Positions 1 to 58,161 of a stretch of DNA of 58,161 nt are shown here, one piece after another. The notes below the pieces were generated by a model. It made no database searches. It saw only the letters and a list, made by a program, of their open reading frames with translations, and had not been told where the DNA came from. The stretch's first letter is position 1, and every line of letters begins with the position of its first letter. Origin of the DNA: a virus. Made by a program: the position numbers and the translations under genes. The stretch lies in IMG/VR virus record IMGVR_UViG_3300019469_000054, positions 1 through 58,161 of that record. One strand, given 5' to 3'.

Positions 1-61
1 CCGCGGCCACGTCCGAGATCGCCTCCACCAAAGCTGTGATGGTTGGCGTGAAGGACAAGGT
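1..61. repeat. 61-bp exact direct repeat of 58101-58161. Interpreted as the overlap of a circular or circularly permuted assembly.
   Basis: Bases 1-61 (ccgcggccacgtccgagatc...aaggacaaggt) are identical to the last 61 bases. An ORF reads in frame through the junction. Confidence 0.95.
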
Positions 62-230
62 CACGTCCCTTGAGACCACGGTCGGGGAGCACACCAGCAA
101 GATCACCGCGCTGGAGAACAAGCCCGGTGGCGGAGCTGGTACGGGTGCGACGGTGCTGGTGCTCGGGCCGACTGAGAACCTTCCGGCGGGCACCAAGCCC
201 GGAACGGTGATTGTTCGAAGGAGCAACTGA
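1..230 (+). CDS. 3' end of the tail-fibre-like gene that starts at 57191 and wraps through the circular junction.
   Basis: Position 36 corresponds to 58136, which is in frame with the ATG at 57191. The coiled-coil text (TSLETTVGEHTSKITALENKP) continues from the window end. The stop TGA at 228-230 overlaps the next ATG. Confidence 0.8.
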   Translation, partial: AATSEIASTKAVMVGVKDKVTSLETTVGEHTSKITALENKPGGGAGTGATVLVLGPTENLPAGTKPGTVIVRRSN

Positions 231-1792
231 TGGCTCTGCCCAAGTGGGTCAAGCAGGTCGAGGTCACGGGTGGCACTGCGAGGCAGCCCAATCCGGTGAC
301 GTTGCTCACCGCGGGTGAGAAGGGCATCGCGCACGACGACTGGGTAGTCATAATTCAGGGTGGTCAGTTCGGCAGCCAGGGAATCCCGGAGTTCATCAGC
401 GATGCGAACTCCGGGTGGTTCGGCAACCAGACTGCCGGTGCTACTAGCCGCAGCCTGGGCGTGTGGGTCAAGAAGGTCGATGACGTCGAGGAGTTCTCGC
501 GGCCCCTCGTCGTCGGGGACTTCCGGGCCTCGTACACCGGGCGTCAGCTCGCTACAGTACTGGTACTGGATGGCTCTGTCGTCAAGAGCTTCAACCACTC
601 GGACGGCGTGACGATCAACACACTGAACAGCAACCAGATCAAGACAGCGGTCGCCAAGCAGAACAAGCCGCACCTGGTCGTGTCGCTCCAGCACTACACG
701 AGCGGAGACCACGCTAGGCCGTTCGAAGGCGCCATTCAGACGATCGATGACGGGCAGAAGACAATGCAGCCCGCACCGAACTCGTCGAGCTCGATCCTAG
801 TGGGCTGGGCCGACAAGGACTACGCCTTCACGGACGCCAGCATCCAGACCTGCGTGGCGACGTGGGCGTTCACCGCAGAAGGGCTCGATCCAACACCACC
901 CAGACCAGAGAGGCACGAGAACTGGTACGTCGTGGGTAAGGACGACACGCACAGGGACCGGTACGCGGCGCTGACTGTTGTCGGGGACGACGGTCAGGAG
1001 AAGGGCACCCTGTCGATGGCGGCGGTGCCCCGGGGTCTGGCGACCTGGCAGGAGCTCATCGACAGGGACAGGAGCGCCCAGAACGGCGGGGAGAACACGG
1101 ATGGGTTCTTCGTGGCCCACAGAGGTGGCAGCAGGTCGTGGGTGGAGCACACCGAAAATGCCTACACGCAGTCCGTGTCGTTCGGCGTGGACGCTCTGGA
1201 GTTCTCCTGCAACGAGTCGAAGGACGGTGTGTGGTTCGGCCTGCACAACAGGACCTTCGAGTCACTGGGCGGCCCGGCGACTGATCCGCACACCATGACG
1301 TGGGACGAGATCAAGGCTGCTCTGCCGGCGAACAAGATTCCTGCGCGTCTGGACTGGCTGCTCGACCGGTACGGGCAGACCCACTGCCTGGTCATCGACC
1401 CGAAGTACCGGGCGGGTGAGTGGAAGCGGCTCCTGAAGTACATCACCGACAGGAACGTGACACCTGCGCAGATCGTTATTAAGTACTACGGCGATTCGAA
1501 CTGGTTGTTCGAGCAGGCGAAGGCCGAGGGCTGCGGGGCCTGGGGCTACGCCTACATGTCGAACACCACTGAGCCCTGGTACGAGACTTTCAAGAGCTCG
1601 ACAGGGCCGTTGGACTTCCTGTCGATGCAGTGGGACGCACCAGCGAACGTGGTGAACGACCTACGAGCCTCTAACAAGCCCGTGGTCGCCCACATCCTCG
1701 ACGATCAGACCCAGTTCGTGCAGGCGACCCGTAAGGGCATGCGCTCCGCGATCGTGGCTGGTGTCAAGGGCGTTCTTCAGCGCCAGTGCTGA
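230..1792 (+). CDS. Tail-associated protein with a C-terminal glycerophosphodiester phosphodiesterase (GDPD) domain.
   Basis: 520-aa ORF with TGATG coupling to the upstream fibre gene. GDPD signature FFVAHRGGSRSWVEHTENAY...DALEFSCNESKDGVWFGLHNRTF. Confidence 0.8.
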   Translation: MALPKWVKQVEVTGGTARQPNPVTLLTAGEKGIAHDDWVVIIQGGQFGSQGIPEFISDANSGWFGNQTAGATSRSLGVWVKKVDDVEEFSRPLVVGDFRASYTGRQLATVLVLDGSVVKSFNHSDGVTINTLNSNQIKTAVAKQNKPHLVVSLQHYTSGDHARPFEGAIQTIDDGQKTMQPAPNSSSSILVGWADKDYAFTDASIQTCVATWAFTAEGLDPTPPRPERHENWYVVGKDDTHRDRYAALTVVGDDGQEKGTLSMAAVPRGLATWQELIDRDRSAQNGGENTDGFFVAHRGGSRSWVEHTENAYTQSVSFGVDALEFSCNESKDGVWFGLHNRTFESLGGPATDPHTMTWDEIKAALPANKIPARLDWLLDRYGQTHCLVIDPKYRAGEWKRLLKYITDRNVTPAQIVIKYYGDSNWLFEQAKAEGCGAWGYAYMSNTTEPWYETFKSSTGPLDFLSMQWDAPANVVNDLRASNKPVVAHILDDQTQFVQATRKGMRSAIVAGVKGVLQRQC

Positions 1793-2743
1793 TCACCAAA
1801 GACTGACGACGAGTTCACTCTTAGCGGGGTTCCCAGGCCGGGGCTGCGTGTCCCAGGTCCGGGCACCCCAATAAGTTTCACCACACTCGTAAAGGTCTTC
1901 TAGCATCGAGCCACAGACATTGACGCGACGGAAACCGTCCTCCGGGTTTACTATCGACACGGGCAGATCGCCCTCATGCTGTCGGACCTCTTCGAGTTCG
2001 GTGATGACGTCGGAACAGGTCAGCGGGCGATCGGGCTCAGCCTTCGACTCCATCGAGTCCAGGCAGTACGAGCGATCGCAGTCCTCGTCGCGCTCGCATT
2101 TGCGGGCGCAGGGCTTGGTCTCGGGCACGACAGGGGCGAGAGAGGGGACGTCCTTCGTGGTGATGACTGGAGAAGCGTTCTCAGCCTTCTTGGCGGGCTT
2201 CTGGACCTCGACACGGGCAGGGTCCACCTGGAGCCCCATAACGGCCTTGGCGAGCCTGGTGAGGGCCTTCTCGTAGGACGACAGGGCGAACTCAGTGAAC
2301 GACAGGGGCTTGGGCTTGCGAACCTTCTTGATCCGCTTGACGATCATGCAGTACTTGAACGGCATGCTGTCGAACTCCCGACCAGTCTCCGACATGATCC
2401 GGTAACGGCTGAGCCCGGCCCTTCCGAGGAACGTGACCTTGTGGCGACCGAAGTAGAACTTGTCGCCCTTGCGGAGCTCACACATCATGACGCGCTCGAT
2501 CTCCTCGGTAAACTCCTCATCGTCATCATCGATGAACTCGACAACGTTGAGGTATGAGTCCTCCGACATGGCGATGACGAAGGGCTTGTAGGTGGGGGTC
2601 ATTACCCAGAACTGGATGATGTCGAGGCTCTCGCACGAGTATCGGGGGTCCGACAGGACCCGGCAATCGCCGAGCCCCTTGATCTCGATGAAGTCCCGCT
2701 TGACGATGCCCCAGCAGTTGACGGGACGGACCTTGCGTGCCAT
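1793..2743 (-). CDS. Hypothetical protein (316 aa) with a Cys-rich acidic C-terminal half. Orphan leftward gene.
   Basis: The track ORF is 1793-2860. The internal ATG at 2743 is preceded by GAGAGGAA about 8 nt upstream, and the sequence upstream of it looks non-coding. Confidence 0.65.
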   Translation of the reverse strand: MARKVRPVNCWGIVKRDFIEIKGLGDCRVLSDPRYSCESLDIIQFWVMTPTYKPFVIAMSEDSYLNVVEFIDDDDEEFTEEIERVMMCELRKGDKFYFGRHKVTFLGRAGLSRYRIMSETGREFDSMPFKYCMIVKRIKKVRKPKPLSFTEFALSSYEKALTRLAKAVMGLQVDPARVEVQKPAKKAENASPVITTKDVPSLAPVVPETKPCARKCERDEDCDRSYCLDSMESKAEPDRPLTCSDVITELEEVRQHEGDLPVSIVNPEDGFRRVNVCGSMLEDLYECGETYWGARTWDTQPRPGNPAKSELVVSLW

Positions 2744-2913
2744 TTGGTGGTTCCTCTCGGTGTCGAAGTCTGGCGTCGGTCTGGTGATGGCGACATCCAG
2801 TTGACCAACGGGTGCAACCCTAGCACGGCTCTCCGACAGGGGCAACGTGTTGCGCGTCACGAGCGCTCACACACGTACGCGTGTACGTGCGCGCGCAGGA
2901 AACCCCAAATCCG

Positions 2914-3096: not shown

Positions 3097-3209
3097 CTGT
3101 TTCTCCAACCTCGACTTCTTCCCGTCGTTCCAATCAAAAGCCCCTGTCGGGTTCTCCCTCGGCCGACCGATCGGTTGAATACAATGTGTGCTACAAAAAC
3201 GAGATTTTC

Positions 3210-3297: not shown

Positions 3298-3463
3298 TTT
3301 ACATCCTGTATTCAACCGAGCGGTCAGTATGAGCCATAGAGTGTGTGCAAGAGCACAGAAATCTCTCGGCCCTGTCGTACTCTGTTGGGCCGTATGTGGT
3401 ACAGTTCTATCTGCGACATCCGGGCAACCGGATCAGAACCACCAACCTTGGAAAGGAACCGAC

Positions 3464-3970: not shown

Positions 3971-6156
3971 TGGCGCGCAACCTGGAGGACGACCTGAACG
4001 AGAAGATCGACAGGGCCATCCTGGAGGAGGCGCAGAAGCCTCGCAGGGAGCGCATGTCGAACGTTGCGCTGGGCCGGATGTTCGACGTCCACGAGACCAC
4101 CATCAGGAGACACAAGCAGGCGCTCCAGAAGGCGCTCAGGCTCCCTGTCGAGCAGGACAGGGACGAGTTCTTCGACATCCCGGTCAACGCCATCACACAG
4201 CGCCGCAGGACCATCAGGCTTGAGGATGGCTCCTACGAGCGCGTTACCTACAATCCTGCTGTCGCAGTAGCCGAGGACGTCCGTGAGGCCTCCTATGAGG
4301 AACTGAAGAAGGTGTTCGACCGGGCTGTCCTCGCGGTGGCCCCCAAAGTCGAGAAGGATCGGCCCAAGACTCTGGTCGTGTGCCTGTCGGACTTCCAGGC
4401 CGGGAAAGCCCTGAAGGACGACACCCCAGTTCTCACAACAGAGGGTTGGGTTGCGCACGGTTCAATCCGTCCCGGCATGAGTGTTTATGGTCGGGACGGT
4501 AAACCGAAGAAGGTCTTGGCTGTTACGGGCTCGACTGAGCAGGACCTCTACGAGGTTGAGTTCGGTGGCGGGCAGACGCTTATCGCTTCGAGCGAGCATC
4601 GGTGGTCCGGATACCGTTCGATGCACACCAAGGATTGGAAGGGTTGGGAGAAGCAGGATATGGTTCTCTCTACCCGAGACCTGGCTATGATCTGCGCTCA
4701 GAAAGCAGCGAAGATTCGACCTTTCAAGGTTTACTCGCACGATCCTGTCGAGTTCGCGCCTGTCGAATTGCCGATTGATCCTTATGTTCTTGGGTTCTGG
4801 CTTGGGGACGGGAAATCAGATAGTGGCTTGATCACTAAGGGGGTTCTTGATGAGGCCCACTTGAAGTCACTTGGGGTCCCGATCAAGGCGAGGCCTGGCC
4901 TCACTACGGTTCGCGTCCCAGGGTTGACCTCGGCGCTTCGGGAGAACGACCTGTTGTCTAATAAGCATGTCCCTGAGGTGTACATCAAGTCTTCTGTCGA
5001 GCAGCGTCTAGCTCTCCTCCAAGGGCTTATGGATTCTGATGGATACTGCCAGCCTAAGTCTGGTTCCATCGAGTTCTCGAATACGAACAAACAGATCGTT
5101 GATTCGGTTGTTGCGATTCTTCACAGTCTTGGAGTCACTCCCCGGGTGATTGAGAGAGTCGGACAATACGACGATGTGACCTGCAAGACCTATTGGCGAG
5201 TCACCTTCCGTTCGGACCTCCCAATGTTCCGCCTTGTCCGCAAAGGTCAATACCAGCGCGAGACTACAGAGCGTAAGGACCACCGACTCTCTGTGAGGTC
5301 TGTGACCCCTGTCGGTCGAGGTAGTGCTCAGTGTCTCACTGTTGAAGGTGGCGAGTACCTCGCGGGTCGGGAACTTACCCTCACTCACAACTGCGACCAA
5401 CTGGGTGGAACACAGGAGACTGTGAACCGGGTCATGGGGGCTCTCAAGCGGATCACCGAGTGGATTCAGGCCGAGGGCTCCTACGAGGAGATCATCGTCG
5501 CGGATGTCGGAGATGTCTGCGAGGGGTTCTGGAACGTCACTTCGCAGCAGCAGACCAACGACCTGTCGCTCACGGATCAGATTCGTGTCGCCCAGCGCCT
5601 TATGGCTGAGGCGGTTGTCATGCTGGCTCCGCTGTGCACCCGAATGACGTACGTGTCGATCCCCTCGAACCACTGCGCCGTGCGGACCGGCAAGGGCAAC
5701 GACAACCGGGCCAACTCACCGGACGACGACTTCGGGCTCCTGATCGCGGACACCATCCAGGCGATCATGTCGGGCCGGGAGCCGTTCAGTCACGTGAACT
5801 TCGCCAAGCCTCAGAAGTGGGAGGAGGCAGTCACGGTGGAGACCGCCGACGGGACCGCCGTGGGCTTCACGCATGGCCATCTGGCGGGCTCTCAGGCGAA
5901 GATCCCGTCCTGGTTCAGGGACCTCGCTTTCGGGCACCGCAGTGGCCTTCATGAGGCCTCGATCCTGGTTCACGGGCACTTCCACAACTTCGGGGTGTCG
6001 CTCGTGGGGGACAACAAGTTCATCATCGGTTGCCCGACCGCGGACAACGGCTCCTCGTGGTTCACGAACCGCACCGGGGACGCCACCGATCCGGCTCTGC
6101 TGACATTCGAGGTTCAGGATAAGAAGGCCAAGAGGTGGGAGCTCTGGTACGAGTGA
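3970..6156 (+). CDS. HTH-domain / calcineurin-like metallophosphoesterase precursor interrupted by an intein.
   Basis: 728-aa ORF coupled by TGATG. N-terminal HTH (MSNVALGRMFDVHETTIRRHKQ). Phosphoesterase motifs LSDFQAGK, GDVCEG, PSNHCA, FTHGH and VHGHFHN are split by an intein at residues 147-474. Confidence 0.85.
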   Translation: MARNLEDDLNEKIDRAILEEAQKPRRERMSNVALGRMFDVHETTIRRHKQALQKALRLPVEQDRDEFFDIPVNAITQRRRTIRLEDGSYERVTYNPAVAVAEDVREASYEELKKVFDRAVLAVAPKVEKDRPKTLVVCLSDFQAGKALKDDTPVLTTEGWVAHGSIRPGMSVYGRDGKPKKVLAVTGSTEQDLYEVEFGGGQTLIASSEHRWSGYRSMHTKDWKGWEKQDMVLSTRDLAMICAQKAAKIRPFKVYSHDPVEFAPVELPIDPYVLGFWLGDGKSDSGLITKGVLDEAHLKSLGVPIKARPGLTTVRVPGLTSALRENDLLSNKHVPEVYIKSSVEQRLALLQGLMDSDGYCQPKSGSIEFSNTNKQIVDSVVAILHSLGVTPRVIERVGQYDDVTCKTYWRVTFRSDLPMFRLVRKGQYQRETTERKDHRLSVRSVTPVGRGSAQCLTVEGGEYLAGRELTLTHNCDQLGGTQETVNRVMGALKRITEWIQAEGSYEEIIVADVGDVCEGFWNVTSQQQTNDLSLTDQIRVAQRLMAEAVVMLAPLCTRMTYVSIPSNHCAVRTGKGNDNRANSPDDDFGLLIADTIQAIMSGREPFSHVNFAKPQKWEEAVTVETADGTAVGFTHGHLAGSQAKIPSWFRDLAFGHRSGLHEASILVHGHFHNFGVSLVGDNKFIIGCPTADNGSSWFTNRTGDATDPALLTFEVQDKKAKRWELWYE
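4408..5391 (+). mobile_element. Class-3-type intein (328 aa) with a LAGLIDADG homing endonuclease domain.
   Basis: Block A ALKDDTPVLTTEGW (Ala1). Block B GQTLIASSEHRW (Trp at B:12). LAGLIDADG motifs LGFWLGDGKSD and LLQGLMDSDGY. Block F AQCLTVEGG (Cys at F:4). Block G LTLTHN followed by Cys+1. Confidence 0.85.
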
Positions 6157-6397: not shown

Positions 6398-6573
6398 TGA
6401 AGGGACGTTCGGTTCCGGCCCTCAGTGCCCTGTCGTACGCTTACGGCAGAGGGCTGGGGGCCGAGTCGGTCGAGGAGCTGCTGGGCTTCTGGGCCTGTTA
6501 TGTTTTCGGATCCCAGTGGCGAGTGATAGGAATTCTCAATGAAAAGAACCGCGGAAGAGCAGAAAGCCATTGA
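6397..6573 (+). CDS. Possible 58-aa protein overlapping the terS start.
   Basis: MKGRSVPALSALSYAYGRGLGAESVEELLGFW... The ATG is coupled to the upstream stop. Uncertain. Confidence 0.3.
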   Translation: MKGRSVPALSALSYAYGRGLGAESVEELLGFWACYVFGSQWRVIGILNEKNRGRAESH

Positions 6574-8866: not shown

Positions 8867-10312
8867 GTGAAATTCGGCACATTTCAGATTGGTGGGTCCA
8901 CCCAGCGCGTCCAGGCCCGGCTGACTGAGGCGTCCAAGGCGTACGCTGCGGTCACCCGCGGGGCTGTCGCATCCCTCAACCGCGAGGACATCGGTTGGTC
9001 CCGCTGGGGCGATGAGGACGCCACCTCCGATGTAGTATCTCTCACAGTCATCAAGGAGCACTCGCTGAGGGCTCGCAGGCTCGCTGCTTACAACCCGCTG
9101 GTGAAGCGCGGTATTGGTATCCGCAACGCCTACATGTGGAGTGAGATTCCTCGCATTTCCGGGATCAAGACGCCCGAGACCGCGGCGCTCTATGACACCG
9201 TCCTCTCCCGCACCGCTCGCGCCCGGGATGAGGCAGCCTTCTGCACCGACGGTATCGTGCTCTACACCGTTCGCCGGACCGACAAGCGAGTGGCGCCCGT
9301 GCCCCTGTCGCGCATCCGTGGCATTGCCCGAGCCCTGGACGCCACCGATGAGGCCGACATCTTCGCCTTCCTGATCGACCCGGTACCCGTGTCGGACACC
9401 CTCTCCACAGCGGAGCAGGAGCGGCGTAAGCCGGAGTGGCACGTCGTCAATGGCAAGGACTGGGCGCCTGTCAAAGACGAGAAGGGCTACAGGACAGTCC
9501 ACGATGATCGGGTCGTCTACGAGATGGTCAACCGACAGATCGGCGAGCAGTGGGGTAAGCCCGAGCTCATGGGCGCCGTGTACTGGGCACAGGCCTACAA
9601 GGAGTTCCTCGAGGCCAGTCACGTCATGACCAAGGCTCTCGCCAGAATTGCGTTCAAAGTCACATCCGCCACGGCCAAGCAGCAGCAGGCCGTTATCCAG
9701 CAGATGTCGAATGCCCAGGGCATCGGCGGCCTCGCCTCGCTCGGCGCGGGCCAGGAGTTCACCGCCGTCTCCAAGGCCGGAGCGGGCATTGACTTCGGGG
9801 CCGGTACCCCGCTTGCCTCCATGGTCGCTAGCGCACTCGATGTGCCCCTGTCGGTCCTCCTCACAGACGGTTCGGCCGGTGGACGACAGGGCGCTGAGAT
9901 GGCTCTGGAGGATCCCACCTTCAAGGCTTTCGAGTTCCGTAGGCAGATTCACAAGAGCCTCATCCAGAAGATATTCCTGGCTCTTGGTCGGAAGGTCGAG
10001 GTTGAGCTCGCGCCGTTGTCGAACGAGCTCATTCAGCGCTGGGGCCAGGTCGTCACCCTCGGTCTTCAGAACGGAATCCTCCACAAGACCGAGGCGCGCA
10101 GCCTCTTCCTCGACAGGCTCCAGCCGATCAACGCCAGGCCGATCAACGATCTGCCCGTGTCGGAGGAGATTCTCGCTGCGAAGAGCCTAGCCGACCCCAA
10201 CGCCGTGCAGGACAGCGTCGCCAAGAAGAGCAACTCTCGCACCGGTGTGGGCGCCATGTCGGACGGCACGAACGCCAACCGTGATGAGTCCGGTGGCGAG
10301 ACTCTCGCCTGA
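8867..10312 (+). CDS. Portal protein.
   Basis: 481 aa. GTG start preceded by GAGGAG. Lies after terL, with portal-like size and composition. Confidence 0.85.
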   Translation: MKFGTFQIGGSTQRVQARLTEASKAYAAVTRGAVASLNREDIGWSRWGDEDATSDVVSLTVIKEHSLRARRLAAYNPLVKRGIGIRNAYMWSEIPRISGIKTPETAALYDTVLSRTARARDEAAFCTDGIVLYTVRRTDKRVAPVPLSRIRGIARALDATDEADIFAFLIDPVPVSDTLSTAEQERRKPEWHVVNGKDWAPVKDEKGYRTVHDDRVVYEMVNRQIGEQWGKPELMGAVYWAQAYKEFLEASHVMTKALARIAFKVTSATAKQQQAVIQQMSNAQGIGGLASLGAGQEFTAVSKAGAGIDFGAGTPLASMVASALDVPLSVLLTDGSAGGRQGAEMALEDPTFKAFEFRRQIHKSLIQKIFLALGRKVEVELAPLSNELIQRWGQVVTLGLQNGILHKTEARSLFLDRLQPINARPINDLPVSEEILAAKSLADPNAVQDSVAKKSNSRTGVGAMSDGTNANRDESGGETLA

Positions 10313-11912: not shown

Positions 11913-13121
11913 ATGTTCACTTCTTACACTGAGTTCGCCAAGACTCTTGAGTCCGCTATCGGTGGTGACCGGGCGGCCCAGGGCCAGCTGAAGAACGCGA
12001 TCCTGGAGGCTGACTCCTCGCGCGACCGCGGCACCTTCCGTGAGGCCGTCACCTCGGACATGCTCGCTCCCTGGTTCACCCAGGCCGTGCAGCCCGCCTT
12101 CGAGGACGCCTACAAGGACCAGGAGGAGACCTGGAAGGAGTTCGCCAGCGAGGAGCTGCTGAACGACTTCCGCCCGGTTCAGCTCCTGTCGCTGGACCAT
12201 GACATCGACGCCACCCTTCTGCGGGACAACGGTGGTTTCGTGGCCCCGGCCGGCACCCTGCCGAAGATTCCGGAGCTCACCCCGTACCCGACCTTCGGCT
12301 ACAAGGCTTCGGGTCGCTGGATCGACACCGCCAAGCACGGTGCTCGCCTCCAGTTCTCGTGGGAGGCTTTCATCAACGACGACTACGGCCTCATCGAGCG
12401 GTTCCCCTCGGACGCCGCCAAGCTGGCCGCCCGCACCGTTGACGCTGCCTGCTACGGTGCGCTGTTCTCGCTCGACCCGAGCACCCCGGGCTTCAACTCC
12501 GGTGTGATCTCGGACTCGCTCGGCACCGTCCTGAAGGCCCGCAACGCGGATGGCGTTCTGATCAACAACAACGTTCCGAAGAACGCCCCCCTGTCGTACG
12601 ACGCCATCAAGGCCGCCATGCAGCAGGTCGCGGAGACCAAGGTCGATGGCCGGTATGTCACTGTCCCCTCCTACGTCCTCCTGGTTCCTCCGGCTCTGGA
12701 GAACCTGGCCAACATGGTGGTCAACACCCGCACTGTCGAGCGCGTTGTCGCTGGGCAGAAGGCGGGCGACCAGATGAAGTTCATCGAGGAGAACGGCCTG
12801 ACCGCCAAGGTCAAGGTTGTCGTCTCCGACCTGGTCGCCATCCTCGGTGGCGCCTCGCAGGGCGGCACCAACTGGGTCCTGGCTCCGGCTGGTGGTCGTA
12901 CCTCCGCCAAGCGCACCATCGTCCGCACCGCTCTCCGTGGCTACGACAAGCCCGAGCTGCGTGTGAAGAACGCTGGTGGCCTGTACCTGGGTGGCGGCGA
13001 GGTTCCCTACACCGCGGGTTCGTTTGACAACGACGACGCTCAGGCTCGCGTCCGCCTCACCACCGGTGCCGGAGTCCTTAACGTGGAAGGCCTGGTTGCT
13101 TCCACCGGTAAGGGCGTCTGA
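11913..13121 (+). CDS. Major capsid protein (HK97-like).
   Basis: 402 aa. RBS GAAAGGAA. Position and size fit, and a strong terminator follows. Confidence 0.85.
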   Translation: MFTSYTEFAKTLESAIGGDRAAQGQLKNAILEADSSRDRGTFREAVTSDMLAPWFTQAVQPAFEDAYKDQEETWKEFASEELLNDFRPVQLLSLDHDIDATLLRDNGGFVAPAGTLPKIPELTPYPTFGYKASGRWIDTAKHGARLQFSWEAFINDDYGLIERFPSDAAKLAARTVDAACYGALFSLDPSTPGFNSGVISDSLGTVLKARNADGVLINNNVPKNAPLSYDAIKAAMQQVAETKVDGRYVTVPSYVLLVPPALENLANMVVNTRTVERVVAGQKAGDQMKFIEENGLTAKVKVVVSDLVAILGGASQGGTNWVLAPAGGRTSAKRTIVRTALRGYDKPELRVKNAGGLYLGGGEVPYTAGSFDNDDAQARVRLTTGAGVLNVEGLVASTGKGV

Positions 13122-13151: not shown

Positions 13152-13184
13152 GGAACCCCGCCCCTGTCGAAGGGGCGGGGTTCC
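13152..13184 (+). terminator. Intrinsic terminator after the capsid gene.
   Basis: Perfect 14-bp stem GGAACCCCGCCCCT / AGGGGCGGGGTTCC with loop gtcga. Confidence 0.8.
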
Positions 13185-13611: not shown

Positions 13612-14096
13612 GCGTCCTGCACAACAAGGATCCCCGTTTCGATTCGGGGGCGTACTGGCCGCTGGGCTTGTTCTGCAACTGCCTCGTGGTCATCACAGAG
13701 CCCCCGGGCACGAAGAGCCACGAGTGGACAGAGGACGGCCCTGTCGATATCCCCCTGAAGGAGCTCTGGAAGGGCTACGCAGCGGTCAACCCGAACATCG
13801 CCTGGCGCGCCCGTGATCGTCGGTCGGCCTACGACGACACCGCAGTCCACGCCTACTACGTGCACCTGAACCACATCGACAAGAACCTGCTCGTATCCAA
13901 GGAGAAGTGGGGTGACAGGTCGCTGAGGTTCGTGCCTGGCTACGGGCAGGTCGTCAAGGTTCTGGAGAACAACTCGGATCCGCGGAACGTGGGTCTGCGC
14001 CTTGTCGTGCGCAACGCCCCGTCGGACTCCGACTACTGGCAGCCAACCTTGCTGTGCGACATCGACGTGGACGACTCCAAGGGCGGGACGCACTGA
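13602..14096 (+). CDS. Head-tail joining protein (hypothetical, 164 aa).
   Basis: The ATG at 13602 is preceded by GGGGGAGGA and overlaps the upstream stop by 10 nt. Confidence 0.65.
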   Translation: MALSVLHNKDPRFDSGAYWPLGLFCNCLVVITEPPGTKSHEWTEDGPVDIPLKELWKGYAAVNPNIAWRARDRRSAYDDTAVHAYYVHLNHIDKNLLVSKEKWGDRSLRFVPGYGQVVKVLENNSDPRNVGLRLVVRNAPSDSDYWQPTLLCDIDVDDSKGGTH

Positions 14097-41383: not shown

Positions 41384-42151
41384 TCAGCCTTTCATGTAGT
41401 GGATCGGTCTGTACTTACTACAGTAGAAGCACTCAGGGGCGCTGTCAAGAGTTGTGATCAGATCGTCACTCTCCTTCGCTTTCTTGTAGATTAGCCCTGC
41501 CCGCCCCAGAGCGTAGATAGCGAGGTCCCTGTCGTATGGCATCGACAGGGCGGTGAGCTCGGACTCGACCACGTGGATCGTGGCGTCCCGAGGTAGGAGC
41601 AGCAGTGTGACGTTGTTCACGTCGTAGCCCTGGTCTTCCATGCCCTTTCCGTACAGGCAGAGCTGTATGTAGTACTGGAGGAACTGAGCAGCGCCGTAGT
41701 CCTCGACGATGGCGTCGAAGCCGCTCCTCTGAGATTTGCGGTACAACCGCTTGAAGGCGTCCCGCTTCTTCAGGGAGACGAGCTTCCAGTCCATTACCTC
41801 CGCTCCCTCGATGTCGAACCTGTCGAGCGTTCCCTTGATTGGGCCGTAGCCACCGACATCACCAACCTGGACCGGCTGCTCTACGAGAACCTCGGCCTCC
41901 CGCTCCATGTCGCGACTGCGTTTCTCGCACAACAGGTGAAATGCCGTCCCGAGCAGCGGGGCGATAGGCGTCTTCTCGTTCTCCCCTGGGCGCTGGATAC
42001 CCATTAAGTCCTCGCCTAGACAAAGGTCACAGCACTTGCCGAGACCTGAAGGTCCGACACGGCGCTGCTTGTCCCGCTTGGAGCGAGCGGTCAAGAGATG
42101 ACGAGCCTGGTCAATGGCTGCGGTAGAAGTCAAGAGCCTCAGCCTCCTCAA
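41384..42151 (-). CDS. PD-(D/E)XK exonuclease, Cas4/RecB-like.
   Basis: About 250 aa. N-terminal Cys cluster KCCDLC and C-terminal CFYC. DxK-type core (DRFDIEG...MDWKLV). The start is uncertain (TTG at 42151 or 42133). Confidence 0.7.
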   Translation of the reverse strand: MRRLRLLTSTAAIDQARHLLTARSKRDKQRRVGPSGLGKCCDLCLGEDLMGIQRPGENEKTPIAPLLGTAFHLLCEKRSRDMEREAEVLVEQPVQVGDVGGYGPIKGTLDRFDIEGAEVMDWKLVSLKKRDAFKRLYRKSQRSGFDAIVEDYGAAQFLQYYIQLCLYGKGMEDQGYDVNNVTLLLLPRDATIHVVESELTALSMPYDRDLAIYALGRAGLIYKKAKESDDLITTLDSAPECFYCSKYRPIHYMKG

Positions 42152-49646: not shown

Positions 49647-50433
49647 GGGGGTTCTGGTTCGCCATCGCCCGTGTCGCCACGTGATCGATCGTTCGCTCGT
49701 TCGAACACGAGAACAAAAGAACGAAAGATGAACACACAAGAGTCATCGCCCTTGTCGCGCTCTGTCGGCAGGCCCGTGTCGGGCCCCGTAGGCCGACCCG
49801 CCCACCGGGTACGGGTCCCCCGTCCTGTCGCACCCGGCTACCGTCCCGCCTCAGATACCTCTCAGACGCGTTGTAAGCCAATCTGAGACGATTTCAGCCC
49901 TGAGTCAGTGCAGGACACTGGAGAGCCCCCTAGAGGCCGTCTACGGGCCTTACAGCACGTCAGCCCCCCTGTGCACGACACAGCGCGATCGATTCGACAG
50001 GGGCACGAACGAGGACGGAGACTGAACAGCCCCTCTCGCCCGTGTCGCCAGGGCCACGAGGGTTGCGATCTTAACAGCGTTAACGAGACAGAAATCACAC
50101 CACACGAAGCCGAATTTCGAGGCGAAGGAAATCGGTTGCTACCGAGTGCGGGGCGGGGGGAGGGGGTGCGACCCCGCACGCCCGTACGAGGGAGGACCCC
50201 GCAATGGAAGACCCGCGAGAGATCAACGCTATGGAGTTGTCAACGAACCCTGCTCCGGCCCTGTCGAGCCCCTACTGCTGGACCTCCTTTCTATAAATAA
50301 GTATAGGCTCAATCCCTGCCCCGGTCAACCCCCCGCAGAGCCTCGTTACACGTTCGTAACAGCCGGGTTGTGCTACTCTTGAAGACTCTTCGACACCCCA
50401 CCCAGCAGGCCGCTGCAACGGCCCCGGGCATGA

Positions 50434-50470
50434 CACCGCCCCTGTCGTCTTGTGAACAACAGGGGCGGTG
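50434..50470 (-). terminator. Terminator hairpin at the end of the early leftward operon.
   Basis: CACCGCCCCTGT / ACAGGGGCGGTG, a perfect 12-bp stem with a 13-nt loop, 13 nt after the stop at 50483. Confidence 0.65.
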
Positions 50471-51966: not shown

Positions 51967-52838
51967 CAGAGGTTCCTTTCGTTGTTGATAGCAGTGAGTC
52001 CGCGCTGGAGCATGAGGCGGGCCTGGAGTCTGACGACCGCGTTGCCCGCGAGGCGAATGGAGGCGGTGCGGGACAGGCCGACGGCATGGGCGGAGGGCAG
52101 GCCCATGAGCCATTCGACGAAAGCAGCGTTCAGTCGGCCTTCGTCGTCCTTGAGTCGAGGCTCGGGGAGGCCTGTAGCGTTCGTCCAAAGGGCAGAATCG
52201 AGTGGAGGGGGGCGGTTGCCTTCATGGACCCAGGTCTGAAGGTTGGGACCACCGCCTCGACCTGAGCGACTGGGCCCTGTCGAGGACGATGCGGTGGGTG
52301 ACGGCACCATGTGTCGAGGTACGACTTTACGGACGACATTGATGCGACGAGGTTCGAAGCAACGCCGGGCCGCGACGAGCATGATGCGCTCACGGCGGTG
52401 CGGAGCCCCGATCTCCCAGGCTCCCCCGGACGCTACGGTAGCGCGGTAGCCGTGCGTGATCATCAGCCAGACAGCCAGATCGAGGTAGGTGCGGTAGCCG
52501 CCAGGGACGTTCTCCGCGACGATGAGGTCCGCCCTACCTGCCACGGCCATGTCGAGGGCCTCGTGGATGAGGCTGCTTCGGGTTCCGGAGCCCTTACCCG
52601 CGACGGGAAGGTCCTGGCAGGGCGCCCCGAGGGTGACGATGGAGCCCTCCGGGACGTCCTGGTCGCGGAAGTCCGAGTGGATCTTCACGTTGCGGAAGCG
52701 GGCCTTCAGGTACTTGCGGGCGGGTCCGTAGTTGTCGGAGAACGACTGGAAGCAGGTGAACTCATTCAGGCCGTCGGCAACGGCCCGGGCGAGCTCGCCG
52801 GTGCCGGAGAACATGTCGATAATCGGTGTGGAGGTCAT
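51966..52838 (-). CDS. DNA (cytosine-5) methyltransferase.
   Basis: 290 aa from the ATG at 52838. Motif I IDMFSGTG, motif IV GAPCQDLP and motif VI ENVPG. Confidence 0.85.
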   Translation of the reverse strand: MTSTPIIDMFSGTGELARAVADGLNEFTCFQSFSDNYGPARKYLKARFRNVKIHSDFRDQDVPEGSIVTLGAPCQDLPVAGKGSGTRSSLIHEALDMAVAGRADLIVAENVPGGYRTYLDLAVWLMITHGYRATVASGGAWEIGAPHRRERIMLVAARRCFEPRRINVVRKVVPRHMVPSPTASSSTGPSRSGRGGGPNLQTWVHEGNRPPPLDSALWTNATGLPEPRLKDDEGRLNAAFVEWLMGLPSAHAVGLSRTASIRLAGNAVVRLQARLMLQRGLTAINNERNL

Positions 52839-52839
52839 G

Positions 52840-53848: not shown

Positions 53849-55186
53849 ATGGGCAACGTGGCACACTACGCGGCCGCCTGCGCGAGATACTACGCGATGG
53901 CGGACATCGGGTACAGCCAGCCCGACAGGTGGACGTTCTACGACAGGAGCGACTGGGACGGCTGGCTGGTCAGGTCCCCAGCCAACGCGGACTGCTCGGC
54001 ACTGGTGTCGGGGTGCTACAACATCGCCGCGCACCATGAGTGGGGCGAACCCTTCACGGCGGGGTACTTCCCCCGGGACACGTGGACGGGGAACATCCGA
54101 GAGTACGCTCTGGAGCGGAATTTTGCCGATATCAGCGACTCGTGGGTAGGTAATGTACCTACCGGGGGCTGGTACGCGGGCGACATCGTGCTGTCGGAGG
54201 GCGCGAGTGGTGGTCGTGGCCATGTGGCGATGATCATCAACGGCGGTTCCGGGCCCGACAGCGATGGCGCGCTGCTGGCCGAGGCGTGGATCGCCGAGGA
54301 CGGCAGCATCGACGGCTGGGAGGGCGACCAGACAGGTGACGAGGTTCGCATCATTGCGTACAACGACCATCCGTACACCCAGCAGGCCGCTTGGACGCAC
54401 GCTCTGAGGCGCCGGGACAACCCGAGCCCGCTGACGACAGGGGGTGGGGGCTCTGCTGCGGCGCCCGCACCCGCACCGAGCGGAGGTGAGAGCGTTCAGG
54501 CCGCGGTTCTGAGGGCTGCGGATGATGTGGGGCTGCACTGGGCGGTGGCACTGGGCCTGGCCGACCAGGAGAGCAACTGCGAGAACGTGTACGGTCACGA
54601 CGTGGGTGGGGCGTGCTCCGGTTGGGGTGAGGTGACGAGGGAGAACTTCCTGAACCACTTCCTGCCCGCGGTGATGGACTGGGAGACCAGCAACGGTGTG
54701 GGCCCGACGCAGGTGACTTATAACGGCTACTTCATCAACGACCCGAACAGGGCGTGGTGGGACCCGCACGAGTCCAGCGTTGTCGGGCTGTCGATCCTGA
54801 GGGACTACCTCGGGGGCGACTACAGCGCCGACAGCATCCGGAGGGCCGGCAGCCGGTACAACTGCGGCAACGAGAGTGATCAGTACTGGGGCTACGGTGA
54901 GAGCCTGCTTCAGCACATCAACAGCTGGTGGTACTCGGAGCGCCCCAGCGGTGGAACAATGGACGAGGTTGAGAGGATCATCATGGCCAATGGCGACGAC
55001 ATCGTGAACGCGATCAACGCGGTTCGCGGGGAGCTGCGGTACGGCAAGGCGAATGAGCGACAGGCCGGGGACGTTATCTGGGGCGTGGAGCAGAACAGGC
55101 TCCTGCTGACCCAGGCGGTCGCTGCGCAGAAGGAGACCAACGGGCTCATCAAGGAGCTCGTCGAGGCGATCAAGAAGGGGAAGTGA
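53849..55186 (+). CDS. Endolysin: N-terminal NlpC/P60- or CHAP-like peptidase plus a lytic transglycosylase-like domain.
   Basis: 445 aa. RBS GAGAGGAGG. Cys/His peptidase pattern (ADCSALVSGC...GRGHVAMII), a Gly/Ala/Pro linker and an SLT-like GLADQESNCENVYG. Confidence 0.8.
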   Translation: MGNVAHYAAACARYYAMADIGYSQPDRWTFYDRSDWDGWLVRSPANADCSALVSGCYNIAAHHEWGEPFTAGYFPRDTWTGNIREYALERNFADISDSWVGNVPTGGWYAGDIVLSEGASGGRGHVAMIINGGSGPDSDGALLAEAWIAEDGSIDGWEGDQTGDEVRIIAYNDHPYTQQAAWTHALRRRDNPSPLTTGGGGSAAAPAPAPSGGESVQAAVLRAADDVGLHWAVALGLADQESNCENVYGHDVGGACSGWGEVTRENFLNHFLPAVMDWETSNGVGPTQVTYNGYFINDPNRAWWDPHESSVVGLSILRDYLGGDYSADSIRRAGSRYNCGNESDQYWGYGESLLQHINSWWYSERPSGGTMDEVERIIMANGDDIVNAINAVRGELRYGKANERQAGDVIWGVEQNRLLLTQAVAAQKETNGLIKELVEAIKKGK

Positions 55187-55565: not shown

Positions 55566-55796
55566 TCACTTGGCGGAGTAGCGACCTCGGATCTTGGAGG
55601 GATTGTAGCCGCCCCATATGTTGCCGTGGTCGTCGGTGACGACAGGGGCCGAGGTGTAACCGGCCTTGATGGCCTTGTCGAGGATGTCCGGGCTGTCGGC
55701 GAGGGCCCGCTCGACGTAGGGGACACCCATCTTGTCGGCGTAGCACTTGGTGGCGCGGCACTGCGGGCAGTTAGGCTGGGTGTAGATGGTGAGCAT
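55566..55796 (-). CDS. nrdH: NrdH-like glutaredoxin.
   Basis: 76 aa. MLTIYTQPNCPQCRATK CxxC motif and ...SAPVV pattern. Confidence 0.85.
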   Translation of the reverse strand: MLTIYTQPNCPQCRATKCYADKMGVPYVERALADSPDILDKAIKAGYTSAPVVTDDHGNIWGGYNPSKIRGRYSAK

Positions 55797-56441: not shown

Positions 56442-56462
56442 GCCCCTTCGACAGGGGCGGGG
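56442..56462. repeat. 21-bp exact inverted copy of the core of the capsid terminator (13156-13176).
   Basis: The reverse complement of 56442-56462 is CCCCGCCCCTGTCGAAGGGGC, identical to 13156-13176. It forms the short hairpin GCCCCT-tcgac-AGGGGC. Confidence 0.85.
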
Positions 56463-56509: not shown

Positions 56510-57187
56510 ATGCTAGGCACTGAGCCGCCCCAGGCGCCCTATGCGAGGGTCGTGGGGCAGATTCTCACGCCGGACGATATGCGACCGGCTGGCGACGTCA
56601 CAGTCGTCTTCACGTACGGGCCCTATGTCGTCTCCTACGGCACGGCCTACATCGAGCGCAGGGTCGAGGTGGGGGTGGACCCGTCCGGGGCGCTGTACGA
56701 TCCCGCGACGGGCAAGAACTACGTCGATCTGATCGCCCCGGGGGCGGGGGTGACGCCCGCAGGGCAATGGTTGTGGCACATCGACGTCGTCGCGAGCGGG
56801 GACTACCTGCTTCAGGGCGATCTGGCACTGCGACAGGGCACTGTGGTGGACGTTGCGAGCGTCCTGACGAACGGGGACGGCATGCTGGCCAACCCGTTCG
56901 CCCGTCAGAGGCCCACTGCCGGGGGTGCGGGGGCCGCTGACCCGGCGCTACCCGGCCCGACACCGCCCGCGGGGGACCTGGCGGAGCTCACGGCGCGTGT
57001 CGAGAACCTCACGCAGGCCTTGAACGGGCTGAGGACCGAGATCGCGGACAACAAGAGGGCGATCGCCGAGTTGAAGGCGCAGCCCCCGGGCGGCGGGGAC
57101 GGCAACGAGGTCGAGATGATCGACAACGGCGACGGAACAGTGACGTACAAGGACAAGACTGTGCCGCAGGGCACGCCGGAGGGCTGA
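56510..57187 (+). CDS. Minor tail / fibre-associated protein (225 aa).
   Basis: RBS AGGAG. C-terminal coiled segment (LAELTARVENLTQALNGLRTEIADNKRAIAELKAQ). Followed by fibre-like genes. Confidence 0.65.
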   Translation: MLGTEPPQAPYARVVGQILTPDDMRPAGDVTVVFTYGPYVVSYGTAYIERRVEVGVDPSGALYDPATGKNYVDLIAPGAGVTPAGQWLWHIDVVASGDYLLQGDLALRQGTVVDVASVLTNGDGMLANPFARQRPTAGGAGAADPALPGPTPPAGDLAELTARVENLTQALNGLRTEIADNKRAIAELKAQPPGGGDGNEVEMIDNGDGTVTYKDKTVPQGTPEG

Positions 57188-57190
57188 GGA

Positions 57191-58161
57191 ATGGCTAAGC
57201 AGTTCGTGGGGAAGGCCACAAGTTACACGGTTGACGGCGCTGAAGCGCGTTTCATCGACAACGACGAGCAGACGCAGGCACTCAACACGCTTCGGAACGA
57301 GGTGCCTGGTCTTGCGGATGCAAGAATCGAGGCTCGGATCGAGGCGTACAAGCAGGAGGTCAACGCGAAATTCGCCCTCAAGAGCGCTCTGGACGGCCTT
57401 CTGAAGGCTGCGGACGCCGCTGCGACCTACGCCCCCAAGGCGGCGCTGGAGGGGCTCCTGAAGGCCACGGATGCCGCCGCTACTTATGCATCCAAGGGCG
57501 ACCTGGCGGCGGCCAAGGAGGCGCTGGAGAAGGGCCTGAAGGAAAACACGGATACCGACACGAGGCGTTGGAGCGTCATCCGCACCAACAAGACAGATGT
57601 CGCCGACCTGAAGACCCGGGTGAAGGCCCTTGAGGACAAGCCCGCGGCCCCCGGCGGCCAGGGCGGAGGCGTGCAGGCAGGCGACACGGGCTGGGTGGAC
57701 ATCGCTCAGGGCCAGATCGGCGCGGGACAGTACCAGTACCGCGTTGTCGGAGCCATGATGTTCTTCCGGAAGAAGGGCGATGAGTGGCGAGCGCTTCCGA
57801 AGTCCGCGACAACTGTGACGCACGTCGCCACGCTGCCGCAGACCTACGGGAAGCTGGAGCGGGCGAGCACATTGGTCGTCAAGAAGGGCGACGGTGATGC
57901 GTGGACCTCGGACGGCTCGATGATCGAGATCTGGCCGAACTGGACCGTGAAGTACACCTGCCTGGATCTTCAGGGTACCTACGCCATGGACCTGCTCAAG
58001 ACCACGGTCGAGAAGCCGCTGCTCACCCCGGCCCAGCCCGGGGGCGGCGTCACCGAGGAGAAGCTCAACGAGCTCAAGACCAATCTTAAGGTGAAGATCG
58101 CCGCGGCCACGTCCGAGATCGCCTCCACCAAAGCTGTGATGGTTGGCGTGAAGGACAAGGT
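57191..58161 (+). CDS. Tail-fibre-like coiled-coil protein, 5' part. It continues through the circular junction to 230, about 379 aa in total.
   Basis: ATG at 57191 preceded by GGAGGG. No stop before the window end. Repeats of the LKxxDAAATYAxK type and ALEDKP/ALENKP coiled segments. Confidence 0.8.
   Translation, partial: MAKQFVGKATSYTVDGAEARFIDNDEQTQALNTLRNEVPGLADARIEARIEAYKQEVNAKFALKSALDGLLKAADAAATYAPKAALEGLLKATDAAATYASKGDLAAAKEALEKGLKENTDTDTRRWSVIRTNKTDVADLKTRVKALEDKPAAPGGQGGGVQAGDTGWVDIAQGQIGAGQYQYRVVGAMMFFRKKGDEWRALPKSATTVTHVATLPQTYGKLERASTLVVKKGDGDAWTSDGSMIEIWPNWTVKYTCLDLQGTYAMDLLKTTVEKPLLTPAQPGGGVTEEKLNELKTNLKVKIAAATSEIASTKAVMVGVKDK
58101..58161. repeat. Terminal copy of the 61-bp overlap (identical to 1-61).
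   Basis: Exact identity on reading. Confidence 0.95.

Follow-up and report, generated by a model that had tools for sequence, protein, structure and literature searches.

An octamer under selection in a siphovirus-like phage genome, and a RepB'-like primase-helicase as its candidate reader

What keeps one asymmetric eight-base word, CCCTGTCG, at 49 places in a phage genome, and what might read it? The word was noticed in a first-pass annotation, made from the letters alone, of IMG/VR record IMGVR_UViG_3300019469_000054, whose 58,161 nucleotides were analysed here in full and are called the window below. The window is a siphovirus-like phage genome that assembled as a circle with a 61-bp exact overlap between its ends, so that its start position is arbitrary. 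Selection at the DNA level had been proposed for the word, with a host Chi-like signal, a target of modification or nicking, and a recognition site for a replication or packaging protein as possible roles. We found that CCCTGTCG is about tenfold over-represented and preserved by selection on the DNA itself. From sequence comparison, a structural model and analogy with characterised enzymes, we take it as the best explanation, and a moderately probable one, that its copies are selected initiation sites of the phage's own primase-helicase, encoded at 37186-39558.

Selection on the DNA word

An exact search of the window found 49 copies of CCCTGTCG, 29 on the + strand and 20 on the - strand, in agreement with every coordinate in the first-pass annotation (Table 1); no other 8-mer is as abundant. 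The rough estimate that only a few copies should arise by chance was also borne out, at about four to five: dinucleotide-preserving shuffles (n = 100) gave a mean of 4.4 copies and a maximum of 11, and an order-2 Markov model predicted 5.3. For a null model that takes account of coding, we called 59 genes crudely from ORF length and a GC3 > GC1 > GC2 pattern, and permuted synonymous codons either within genes, keeping amino-acid sequence and per-gene codon usage, or genome-wide. Codon-shuffled genomes contained on average 14.4 or 12.9 copies, including eight fixed non-coding ones, and never more than 23 in 1000 shuffles. In coding DNA alone, 41 copies were observed compared to 6.6 after shuffling. 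Similar counts in codon-shuffled genomes, which the annotation had named as grounds for dropping its claim, were thus not seen.

The reading frames of the copies were much as first described: 17 are read in the sense direction as xCC-CTG-TCG (Leu-Ser) and nine as CCT-GTC-G (Pro-Val), 15 are antisense, in all three frames, and eight lie outside called genes. The excess was alike on the sense (6.0x) and antisense (6.5x) strands of genes, and reached 4-17x in each of the five frames that the amino-acid sequence permits. A codon or dipeptide artefact was ruled out by the within-gene and genome-wide synonymous shuffles, and an RNA-level or transcription-coupled role was rejected because sense and antisense are equally enriched. 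The description of the codons that spell the octamer as rare was too strong, as they are minor codons (AGG 16% and CGA 14% of Arg, CCT 17% of Pro, ACA 12% of Thr).

The octamer heads a graded family of words, all sharing an invariant 3' core and differing in a graded 5' flank. Compared to the codon-shuffle null, TGTCG occurred 424 times against 239 (z 17.6), CTGTCG 144 against 62, CCTGTCG 88 against 27 and CCGTGTCG 34 against 10; a CC prefix precedes 34% of the CTGTCG copies, close to the 140 copies and one third estimated by eye. Single-base variants at positions 1-3 of the octamer were all at or above expectation (1.0-4.4x), and those inside TGTCG were all at or below it. The 5' flank was preferred in the order CCC > CCG > TCC, with TGTCG unchanged throughout. 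Beyond the eight bases, a preference was seen only at -2 (G/C in 44 of 49) and +1 (C in 4 of 49). As the flanks are otherwise unconserved, a longer conserved element or repeat family was ruled out. The absence of the exact octamer from 41551-49994, which had been taken as a possible sign of mosaic origin, is real, and this largest gap is only mildly unusual. It still holds nine copies of CC[C/G]TGTCG, and because TGTCG remains enriched there (about twofold) a mosaic origin is not needed.

Purifying selection was seen directly among close relatives. These were 52 loci taken from two scans of viral contigs in human-associated metagenomes, 83-93% identical to the window in DNA sequence, which do not represent independent lineages. 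All 52 carried the word at the same density as the window. Window copies were intact in 75-78% of relatives, compared to 44% for control coding 8-mers (permutation p < 1e-4), and identity at third codon positions inside the word was 0.84-0.99 against a baseline of 0.76, to which it returned one base beyond the word (+1). The footprint was strongest in TGTCG itself, and the sibling words CCGTGTCG, CCTTGTCG, CCATGTCG and TCCTGTCG showed the same footprint. This is direct evidence that the DNA word itself is constrained, and it upholds the earlier claim that selection acts on DNA and not on a peptide: the excess is present in all usable frames, and synonymous positions inside the word are conserved while its flanks are not.

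Only three window copies sit in hairpins, at 13162, 50440 and 56449, the same three that were first reported, and they differ in strength. The hairpin at 13147-13185, after the capsid gene, has a strong, terminator-like 15-bp stem (-22 kcal/mol, z -6.2) and is clearly significant; that at 50440 is moderately so, and that at 56449 is not significant. The hairpins at 13147-13185 and 56442-56463 share a GTCGA loop closed by CCCCT/AGGGG, and would thus display the core of the motif in single-stranded form. The inverted pair reported at 41527 and 41543 is present, but its fold is not significant (z -1.6).

Lineage, host and the primase-helicase

No near relative was found at the nucleotide level when 20 kb of the window was compared by megablast with 50,697 phage records, and the window was then placed by protein searches. 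Its gene order is shared with Arthrobacter phage Amigo, Curtobacterium phage Yappy and Clavibacter phage CN1A. Rightward structural genes are followed by a leftward replication module that comprises PolA (34001-37168), the primase-helicase, DUF669, an AAA_24/Sak4-like ATPase, a Cas4/RecB-like exonuclease (41384-42151) and an SNF2 helicase. The AAA_24 (Sak4-like), DUF669 and Cas4-like genes make up a predicted recombination module of the phage's own. ThyA and a C5 cytosine methyltransferase (51966-52985) are also encoded, and neither an integrase nor a repressor was found among the window proteins scanned. The neighbours of ThyA in searches point to Actinomyces (69% identity), which does not identify the host, and the homologues of the lysin, all from metagenomic phages, give no pointer. 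The host may be a Rothia, a guess based on GC content (54%, 60%) and on the Micrococcaceae-phage relatives.

A word dictated by the host and mimicked by the phage, whether a RecBCD/AddAB/AdnAB Chi, an uptake sequence or a host oligonucleotide signature, is largely refuted and we regard it as most improbable. The density of the octamer (1 per 1.2 kb, on both strands and in all frames, with occasional terminator hairpins) does resemble that of uptake sequences and Chi, and the counts cover sampled actinobacterial segments in place of the window's own host. However, CCCTGTCG was at chance level (0-5 copies) in each of 80 diverse actinobacterial chromosome segments of about 20 kb; an uptake sequence occurs about once per kb in a competent host, and these segments, which served as a proxy, lack the word. 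It showed no excess in other oral actinophages with related lysins, nor in six unrelated phages, many comparison genomes being read in part (15-50 kb).

Relatives of the window retain the word across base compositions. It was counted 14 times against 1.5 expected in a clade with 65% primase identity; in a clade with 37% primase identity, TGTCG occurred 138 times against 61. A sister clade of 54% GC, with genomes of about 50 kb, had about 165 TGTCG per 21 kb against 65, and TGTCG was contained in all of its top 8-mers. Clades of 54%, 57% and 60% GC, which presumably have different hosts, thus all keep TGTCG. In contrast, three phages of one host strain, Arthrobacter sp. ATCC 21022, gave three outcomes: Amigo is enriched in GTGTGC (92 against 25), the podovirus Jasmine in CTGTGG (89 against 14, z 19.8), and DrRobert has no comparably enriched word. 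A host-defined signal (Chi, uptake sequence or host signature) cannot account for three outcomes on one strain. Related words also occur in Pseudomonas and Mycobacterium phages, and Pseudomonas Chi is GCTGGCGC (PMC12315714). Same-host and cross-phylum comparisons therefore ruled out the host-Chi and uptake-sequence readings. Judged from these genomes, the word co-varies with the phage and primase lineage, independently of host.

Phages rich in Chi provide a further comparison. In LLS, P1 and MD8, no octamer is as frequent as Chi, which occurs about once per 1.9 kb, and the octamers next in frequency overlap it; Chi lies strongly in one orientation (20:3 in LLS, 32:0), is clustered near one end, and occurs in phages that lack a recombination module (PMC12315714). 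CCCTGTCG is likewise the most frequent octamer of its genome. Unlike Chi, it is not shared with host-type chromosomes and is neither one-oriented nor clustered at an end: the ratio is 29:20 overall, with a regional bias that is largely gene orientation, and sites are evenly spread in Amigo and Jasmine, whose ends are known. The window also encodes a recombination module. The suggested Chi-like signal for a host nuclease thus found no support, either here or in the actinobacterial segments and same-strain phages.

The 790-aa product of gene 37186-39558 matches a PHROG DNA primase family (1.8e-82) and, weakly, Pfam RepB_primase; its homologues carry PF16793 (RepB_primase) and PF13148 (DUF3987). 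An alignment of 42 primase sequences showed an invariant DxD pair (D103, D105) and an invariant R-x-P-x-T-x-N-x-K motif. An AF2 model (mean pLDDT 84.9) has an alpha/beta catalytic domain, a helical bundle, a P-loop domain and a helical/winged-helix C-terminus. A sequence search against the PDB gave no match, and the relation to known structures came from fold comparison: in Foldseek searches of the PDB, the N-terminal half matched RepB' of plasmid RSF1010 (3H20, E 1.2e-5) and the C-terminal half matched MCM helicases (E 4e-7). Sequence and model together indicate that the genome codes for a primase with a catalytic domain of the archaeo-eukaryotic primase (AEP) type and a helix-bundle domain.

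Homologues of the N-terminal primase domain are encoded by Amigo, Yappy, CN1A, Jasmine (25% identity, E 2e-10), Pseudomonas phage PMBT14 and Mycobacterium phage FF47. DrRobert has a Prim-Pol/PriCT primase unrelated to that of the window (hhalign probability 0.2%), and the T7 primase is of DnaG type. Each lineage with the domain has its own enriched word: (C/G)TGTCG in the window and sister clades, GTGTGC in Amigo, CTGTGC in Yappy, CTGTGG(G) in Jasmine, GTGTGG in PMBT14 and FF47, CTGTGG and CTGTGC in two distant metagenomic relatives, and CCGTGCG in CN1A. An S-TGT-S-S hexamer ranked 1-7 of 2080 in 11 of 12 genomes with a homologous domain, but 51-581 in nine controls that include T7 and DrRobert, none of which had one in the top ranks. 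The excesses in the genomes with the domain survived synonymous shuffling (z 6.4-17.9), and the pattern of an invariant 3' part with a variable 5' part was found in every related lineage, eight in all, as expected of a template signal of the AEP-primase type; the core in the window is GTC-G and not GTG. The word thus changes with the primase lineage, from Pseudomonas to Mycobacterium hosts, and the rest of the replication module is inherited along with the primase. Of the roles first suggested, this co-variation with a RepB'-like primase domain favours a recognition site for a replication protein.

Priming and the rival readings

How does the word compare with the sites of characterised primases? 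The pRN1 primase, an AEP domain with a helix bundle, strictly needs 5'-GTG-3' in the template, and the base 3' of GTG is critical; synthesis begins at the first base 5' of GTG, leaving the motif itself uncopied, and bases 5' of the motif set primer length without changing efficiency (PMC2034472). The minimal template is 5'-CTTCTTCTGTGC-3' (PMC2034472), which ends in CTGTGC, the hexamer enriched in Yappy. The PrimPol of phage NrS-1 prefers 5'-GTGG-3' or 5'-GTGA-3', starts at the first upstream base and binds the site through its helix-bundle domain (PMC8718748); the enriched words of Jasmine, PMBT14 and FF47 all end in GTGG. The window resembles pRN1 ORF904 in its short, cryptic 3' core, the fixed next base 3' of it and the variable 5' bases, and in a protein with a predicted catalytic plus helix-bundle layout. 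It differs in having GTCG as its core instead of GTG, an effective site of 5-8 nt with a 5' preference for CC(C/G), and a word that is over-represented and conserved genome-wide; its protein is known from sequence and a model. NrS-1 is flexible in its choice of site, has its helicase as a separate protein, and no genome-wide excess has been reported for it. By analogy, the layout of the words (GTG or GTC plus a fixed base, T before it in most lineages, and a free or graded 5' flank) is the same as that of the pRN1 and NrS-1 sites.

We propose that the primase-helicase reads a short template signal on single strands, 5'-(C/G)(C/G)N-T-GTCG-3', of which CCCTGTCG would be the preferred long form. 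If it works as its characterised relatives pRN1 ORF904 and NrS-1 PrimPol do, the invariant 3' part (GTCG here, GTG+N in those relatives) would be bound by its helix-bundle domain and left uncopied. The primer would start at the base just 5' of GTCG, with A opposite T, and run into the 5' flank, where CCC would yield a strongly pairing 5'-AGGG primer and CCG a 5'-ACGG primer. Chance alone would supply too few sites for a primase whose recognition takes 5-8 specific bases; selection would therefore have seeded sites and kept them, on both strands and in any frame that the proteins allow, giving a strong site roughly every 1.2-1.7 kb on each strand and many weaker TGTCG sites besides.

The spacing of sites in Amigo and Jasmine fits a role of this kind. 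Sites on each strand were more even than random, with gap coefficients of variation (CV) of 0.52 and 0.68 in Amigo and 0.63 and 0.74 in Jasmine (P <2e-4 to 0.026). Each strand alone was more regular than the pooled strands (CV 0.74 and 0.78), which suggests a strand-specific, distance-limited function with about one site per kb per strand.

Several observations weigh against priming as the function. Window sites are no more even than random (CV 0.9-1.15), and the exact octamer leaves a gap of 8.4 kb. The + orientation dominates from 3 to 49.5 kb and the - orientation elsewhere (25:9 versus 4:11, Fisher p 0.004), but the codon-shuffle expectation is skewed likewise, so that gene orientation explains most of the pattern of site orientations; no inference on fork direction, or on an origin near the AT-rich tract at about 3.0 kb, is justified from the skew. 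The gene set behind the codon shuffles is our own crude set of calls. The link to the primase is correlative, as PolA, the SNF2 helicase, the Sak4-like ATPase and the Cas4-like exonuclease are co-inherited with it. The window core, GTC-G, is not the GTG of the characterised enzymes, the CN1A word CCGTGCG departs from the S-TGT-S-S class, and two distant genomes show an excess of only about 2.2-2.6x. An MCM-like helicase tracks on the leading-strand template, which leaves the access of a fused primase to lagging-strand sites unexplained. Finally, T7, whose primase sites are known, shows little genomic excess of them (GGGTC 94 against 57, TGGTC 141 against 125), so enrichment of primase sites is no general rule.

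Other primases resemble the window's system in part. RepB' of RSF1010 is a strictly sequence-specific primase that recognises two hairpin sites of about 40 nt (ssiA/ssiB) at one origin. It is the best structural match of the N-terminal half of the window primase, and PF16793 is the Pfam family of the homologues; unlike the ssi sites, the window word is short and dispersed at about 50-400 places, with three copies in hairpins. The primase sites of T7 gp4 are given as 5'-(G/T)(G/T)GTC-3', with an invariant GTC core, a cryptic 3' base and a graded, copied 5' flank (PMC12839067). On that account the site layout is the same and the window core contains GTC. However, gp4 is of the DnaG/zinc-finger type, with a fold unrelated to that of the window primase, and its sites are barely enriched. 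In the literature searched, we found no description of a genomic footprint of over-represented primase sites, no report of a genome-wide excess of the recognition site for pRN1 or any AEP primase, and no mention of enriched words in the paper describing the Arthrobacter phages.

Among the alternatives to priming, it is unlikely that the sites serve another function of the primase-helicase or of a co-inherited protein, such as dispersed, origin-like loading of the MCM-like helicase through its C-terminal winged helix, or binding of a protein that organises or compacts the genome. The model does give the helicase part a helical/winged-helix region at its C-terminus, and the window has one inverted pair (41527/41543). 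In an unrelated phage of 68% GC (IMGVR_UViG_3300029893_000507), positions 13416-13575 hold an iteron-like array of eight CCCCTGTCG half-sites at the contig end, several arranged as CCCCTGTCG-N4-CGACAGGGG palindromes; the array resembles an origin or operator in which this word serves as a half-site on duplex DNA, so proteins that read it in that form probably exist. The window copies, however, are single, non-palindromic and mostly intragenic, their invariant-3'/graded-5' profile is typical of template-directed initiation and not of a duplex operator, and a duplex site indifferent to orientation would be expected to give the reverse of the per-strand regularity seen in Amigo and Jasmine. Stoperators, the 13-bp asymmetric repressor sites of cluster A mycobacteriophages, are a related case: they occur in temperate phages that have a repressor, lie between genes in a single orientation with respect to transcription, and have a TGTC core in the L5 consensus. 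The window word shares with them an asymmetric, phage-specific sequence, tens of sites per actinophage genome and the TGTC core, but 41 of its 49 copies are intragenic, on both strands, with sense and antisense equally enriched, which does not fit repressor sites of the stoperator type.

A Chi-like or self-identity signal private to the phage, read on single-stranded DNA by a phage nuclease or helicase (the exonuclease 41384-42151, the Sak4-like ATPase or the MCM-like helicase), strikes us as quite unlikely. Such a signal, of which each lineage would have its own, might switch the machinery from degradation to recombination or spare phage DNA while that of the host is destroyed, a role to which we attach similarly little weight. 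As with Chi in LLS and P1 (1 per 1.9 kb; PMC12315714), the word is the most frequent octamer and has many near-variants. It is also phage-specific, its spacing in Amigo and Jasmine is strand-specific, and a Cas4/RecB-like exonuclease is present in all annotated motif-bearing phages. On the other hand, such a nuclease is not annotated in FF47, DrRobert lacks an enriched word although it encodes a Cas4-family exonuclease and a RecA-like recombinase, the sites are spread evenly, without the end-clustering or the single orientation seen in LLS (20:3), and the GTG/GTC-centred anatomy specifically matches primase sites. We know of no phage-encoded nuclease that reads Chi. It is just as doubtful that each lineage carries its word as a private 'self' mark, which the primase-helicase and the Cas4-like exonuclease would jointly recognise on single-stranded DNA. 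If so, the word might, again with low probability, license priming or recombination and tell phage from host DNA while the host genome is degraded, and it is hardly more credible that it would act as a Chi analogue encoded by the phage, with a specificity that evolves in step with the helix-bundle domain.

Modification or nicking by a phage enzyme (the C5-methyltransferase 51966-52985 or a nickase), with sites kept for packaging, protection or replication restart, is distinctly improbable. Methyltransferases are encoded by the window and by Amigo, the avoidance of CTCGAG (10 against 62) shows that restriction pressure shapes the genome, and site-specific nicks exist in some phages (T5 and others). 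Yet C5 methyltransferases usually target palindromes of 4-6 bp and this word is non-palindromic and enriched, a modification target does not itself require over-representation, and no methyltransferase is annotated in the regions read of PMBT14, FF47 and Jasmine, whose words are equally strong; conversely, the oral phages L135 and L137 have C5 methyltransferases and no such word. We think it very unlikely that the word is the product of mutation or repair, with retained DNA primers writing the preference of the primase into the flanks, or a process like very-short-patch repair converting near-sites. AEP primases of the pRN1 kind do make DNA-containing primers, which could be retained (PMC2034472), near-variants are abundant, relatives differ mostly by C>T / G>A transitions, and the preference in the 5' flank is graded and not strict. 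However, an invariant 3' core that is not copied could be neither created nor maintained by a process acting on flanks, the conservation footprint peaks in TGTCG itself, one-mismatch variants of the core are not depleted in a specifically transition-only pattern, and the even spacing in Amigo and Jasmine implies selection on position.

If the words are priming sites, genome statistics alone would be enough to read off the template specificity of a whole family of phage primase-helicases not yet characterised biochemically, in which a RepB'-like AEP domain and helix bundle are fused to an MCM-like or DnaB-like helicase. The predicted specificities would be TGTCG in the oral phage group, GTGTGC in Amigo, CTGTGG in Jasmine, CTGTGC in Yappy and GTGTGG in PMBT14 and FF47. 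A primase with a long recognition site would then impose a measurable cost on the genome, with purifying selection maintaining tens to hundreds of sites by way of synonymous and non-synonymous choices in every gene. This would bear on synthetic recoding of phage genomes, on phage classification independent of host range, and on lagging-strand priming by AEP-MCM fusions. Cultivable relatives make the primase reading directly testable.

Positions of the copies and other features of the genomes

Table 1. Copies of CCCTGTCG in the window, the wider word family and the candidate reader
Element	Position	Strand	Context
CCCTGTCG	1008..1015	+	sense in gene 230-1792 (ACC CTG TCG)
CCCTGTCG	1060..1067	-	antisense (GAC AGG G)
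CCCTGTCG	1599..1606	-	antisense (TCG ACA GGG)
CCCTGTCG	2128..2135	-	sense in gene 1793-2860(-)
CCCTGTCG	2279..2286	-	sense in gene 1793-2860(-)
CCCTGTCG	2300..2307	-	sense in gene 1793-2860(-)
CCCTGTCG	2834..2841	-	sense in gene 1793-2860(-)
CCCTGTCG	3142..3149	+	non-coding; just to the right of the AT-rich tract
CCCTGTCG	3370..3377	+	sense (CCT GTC G)
CCCTGTCG	4008..4015	-	antisense
CCCTGTCG	4143..4150	+	sense
CCCTGTCG	5307..5314	+	sense
CCCTGTCG	6428..6435	+	sense; intact in 27/29 relatives
CCCTGTCG	9303..9310	+	sense, portal gene; intact in 27/31 relatives
CCCTGTCG	9846..9853	+	sense, portal gene; intact in 28/30 relatives
CCCTGTCG	9884..9891	-	antisense, portal gene; intact in 29/30 relatives
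CCCTGTCG	12589..12596	+	sense, capsid gene
CCCTGTCG	13162..13169	+	hairpin after capsid gene; CCCT in stem, GTCGA loop; TCCTGTCG in 20/26 relatives
CCCTGTCG	13739..13746	+	sense
CCCTGTCG	19548..19555	+	sense, tape-measure gene
CCCTGTCG	20422..20429	-	antisense
CCCTGTCG	21678..21685	+	sense
CCCTGTCG	23268..23275	-	antisense
CCCTGTCG	23879..23886	+	sense
CCCTGTCG	24911..24918	-	antisense
CCCTGTCG	26179..26186	+	sense
CCCTGTCG	26832..26839	+	sense
CCCTGTCG	27472..27479	+	sense
CCCTGTCG	28446..28453	+	sense
CCCTGTCG	30550..30557	+	sense
CCCTGTCG	31468..31475	+	first of tandem pair, 15 bp apart; outside called genes
CCCTGTCG	31483..31490	+	second of tandem pair with 31468
CCCTGTCG	32488..32495	+	antisense in gene 32148-33050(-)
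CCCTGTCG	33076..33083	-	outside called genes; intact in 19/21 relatives
CCCTGTCG	34929..34936	+	antisense, DNA polymerase gene
CCCTGTCG	36922..36929	+	antisense, DNA polymerase gene
CCCTGTCG	37972..37979	-	sense, primase gene
CCCTGTCG	40555..40562	-	sense, AAA_24 gene
CCCTGTCG	41021..41028	+	antisense
CCCTGTCG	41527..41534	+	left arm of inverted pair CCCTGTCG-N8-CGACAGGG, inside exonuclease gene
CCCTGTCG	41543..41550	-	right arm of inverted pair with 41527
CCCTGTCG	49995..50002	-	sense, small ORF
CCCTGTCG	50259..50266	+	non-coding
CCCTGTCG	50440..50447	+	12-bp-stem hairpin (z -2.35)
CCCTGTCG	52275..52282	+	antisense, C5-methyltransferase gene
CCCTGTCG	54435..54442	-	antisense, lysin-like gene
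CCCTGTCG	55640..55647	-	sense
CCCTGTCG	56449..56456	-	short hairpin, weak (z -1.2); GTCGA loop as at 13162
CCCTGTCG	56831..56838	-	antisense; intact in 11/11 relatives
Wider word family	1..58161	both	whole genome; 424 TGTCG, 88 CCTGTCG, 34 CCGTGTCG, 24 CCTTGTCG, 19 TCCTGTCG
Candidate motif reader, 790-aa primase-helicase	37186..39558	-	predicted RepB'-like AEP ~16-210, helix bundle ~226-327, MCM-like AAA+ ~365-790

Other features of the window were recorded alongside the octamer. A 728-aa protein (3970-6156, +) has terminase-like/ATPase and exonuclease PHROG matches and is split by a LAGLIDADG/homing-endonuclease domain (residues ~334-416), probably an intein; its CN1A counterpart is annotated as 'exonuclease, contains intein'. 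In PolA (1055 aa), an insert separates the two polymerase matches. Thymidine hypermodification, considered from ThyA and a DUF3310 'kinase', was dropped, as ThyA proved to be an ordinary thymidylate synthase (E 2e-106) that shares 69% identity with bacterial ThyA.

Two very AT-rich tracts, at 2915-3055 and 49472-49610 (e.g. TATATATTATTATATTATATAAATATTATATA), stand out in this 60%-GC genome at two divergent/early-region boundaries, and could be promoters, origin-unwinding elements or the boundaries of terminal repeats. TATATA is the top enriched 6-mer by the Markov model (30 against 1.4). Several palindromes were strongly avoided compared to the codon-shuffle null (CTCGAG 10 against 62, GCCGGC 34 against 83, CAGCT(G) 72 against 137, and words containing GGATC), a usual signature of restriction avoidance that hints at XhoI-, NaeI- and PvuII-like enzymes in the host. 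Two secondary 8-mers that share CAGT(G) were enriched against the same null: TGCTCAGT (12 against 1.4; e.g. 5325, 20092, 25730 and 26012) and CCGCAGTG (13 against 2.8; e.g. 5937, 19494 and 20403). All 12 and 13 sites are intragenic and lie on both strands, and they may represent a second, weaker DNA-level word.

Repeated words of other kinds were seen in the comparison genomes. A different oral actinophage of about 44.8 kb (ENA contigs k141_70427 and k141_13143, 21.4-kb loci) has the palindrome CCTCGAGG at 20 sites in 21 kb (40 counted on both strands, against 2.3 expected), together with TCGAGG (83 against 25). The density of CCTCGAGG is comparable to that of the window's word; it is palindromic and contains a site avoided in the window. 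CTCGAG, CCTCGA and CGAGGA are about 2-2.8x enriched in PMBT14 and FF47 also. The enriched words of DrRobert are palindromes with GATC or GATATC and not of TGT type, and its gene at 34642-35781 for a PurA-like adenylosuccinate synthetase (PurZ-type) suggests a genome with 2-aminoadenine. In a Logan contig from SRR31724285, whose primase is 27% identical to that of the window, a QueC/PTPS/radical-SAM/GTP-cyclohydrolase I cluster of 7-deazaguanine DNA-modification genes lies beside the primase (11796-15189), and a separate word, GAGTCTAATG, is repeated (12 against 0.5).

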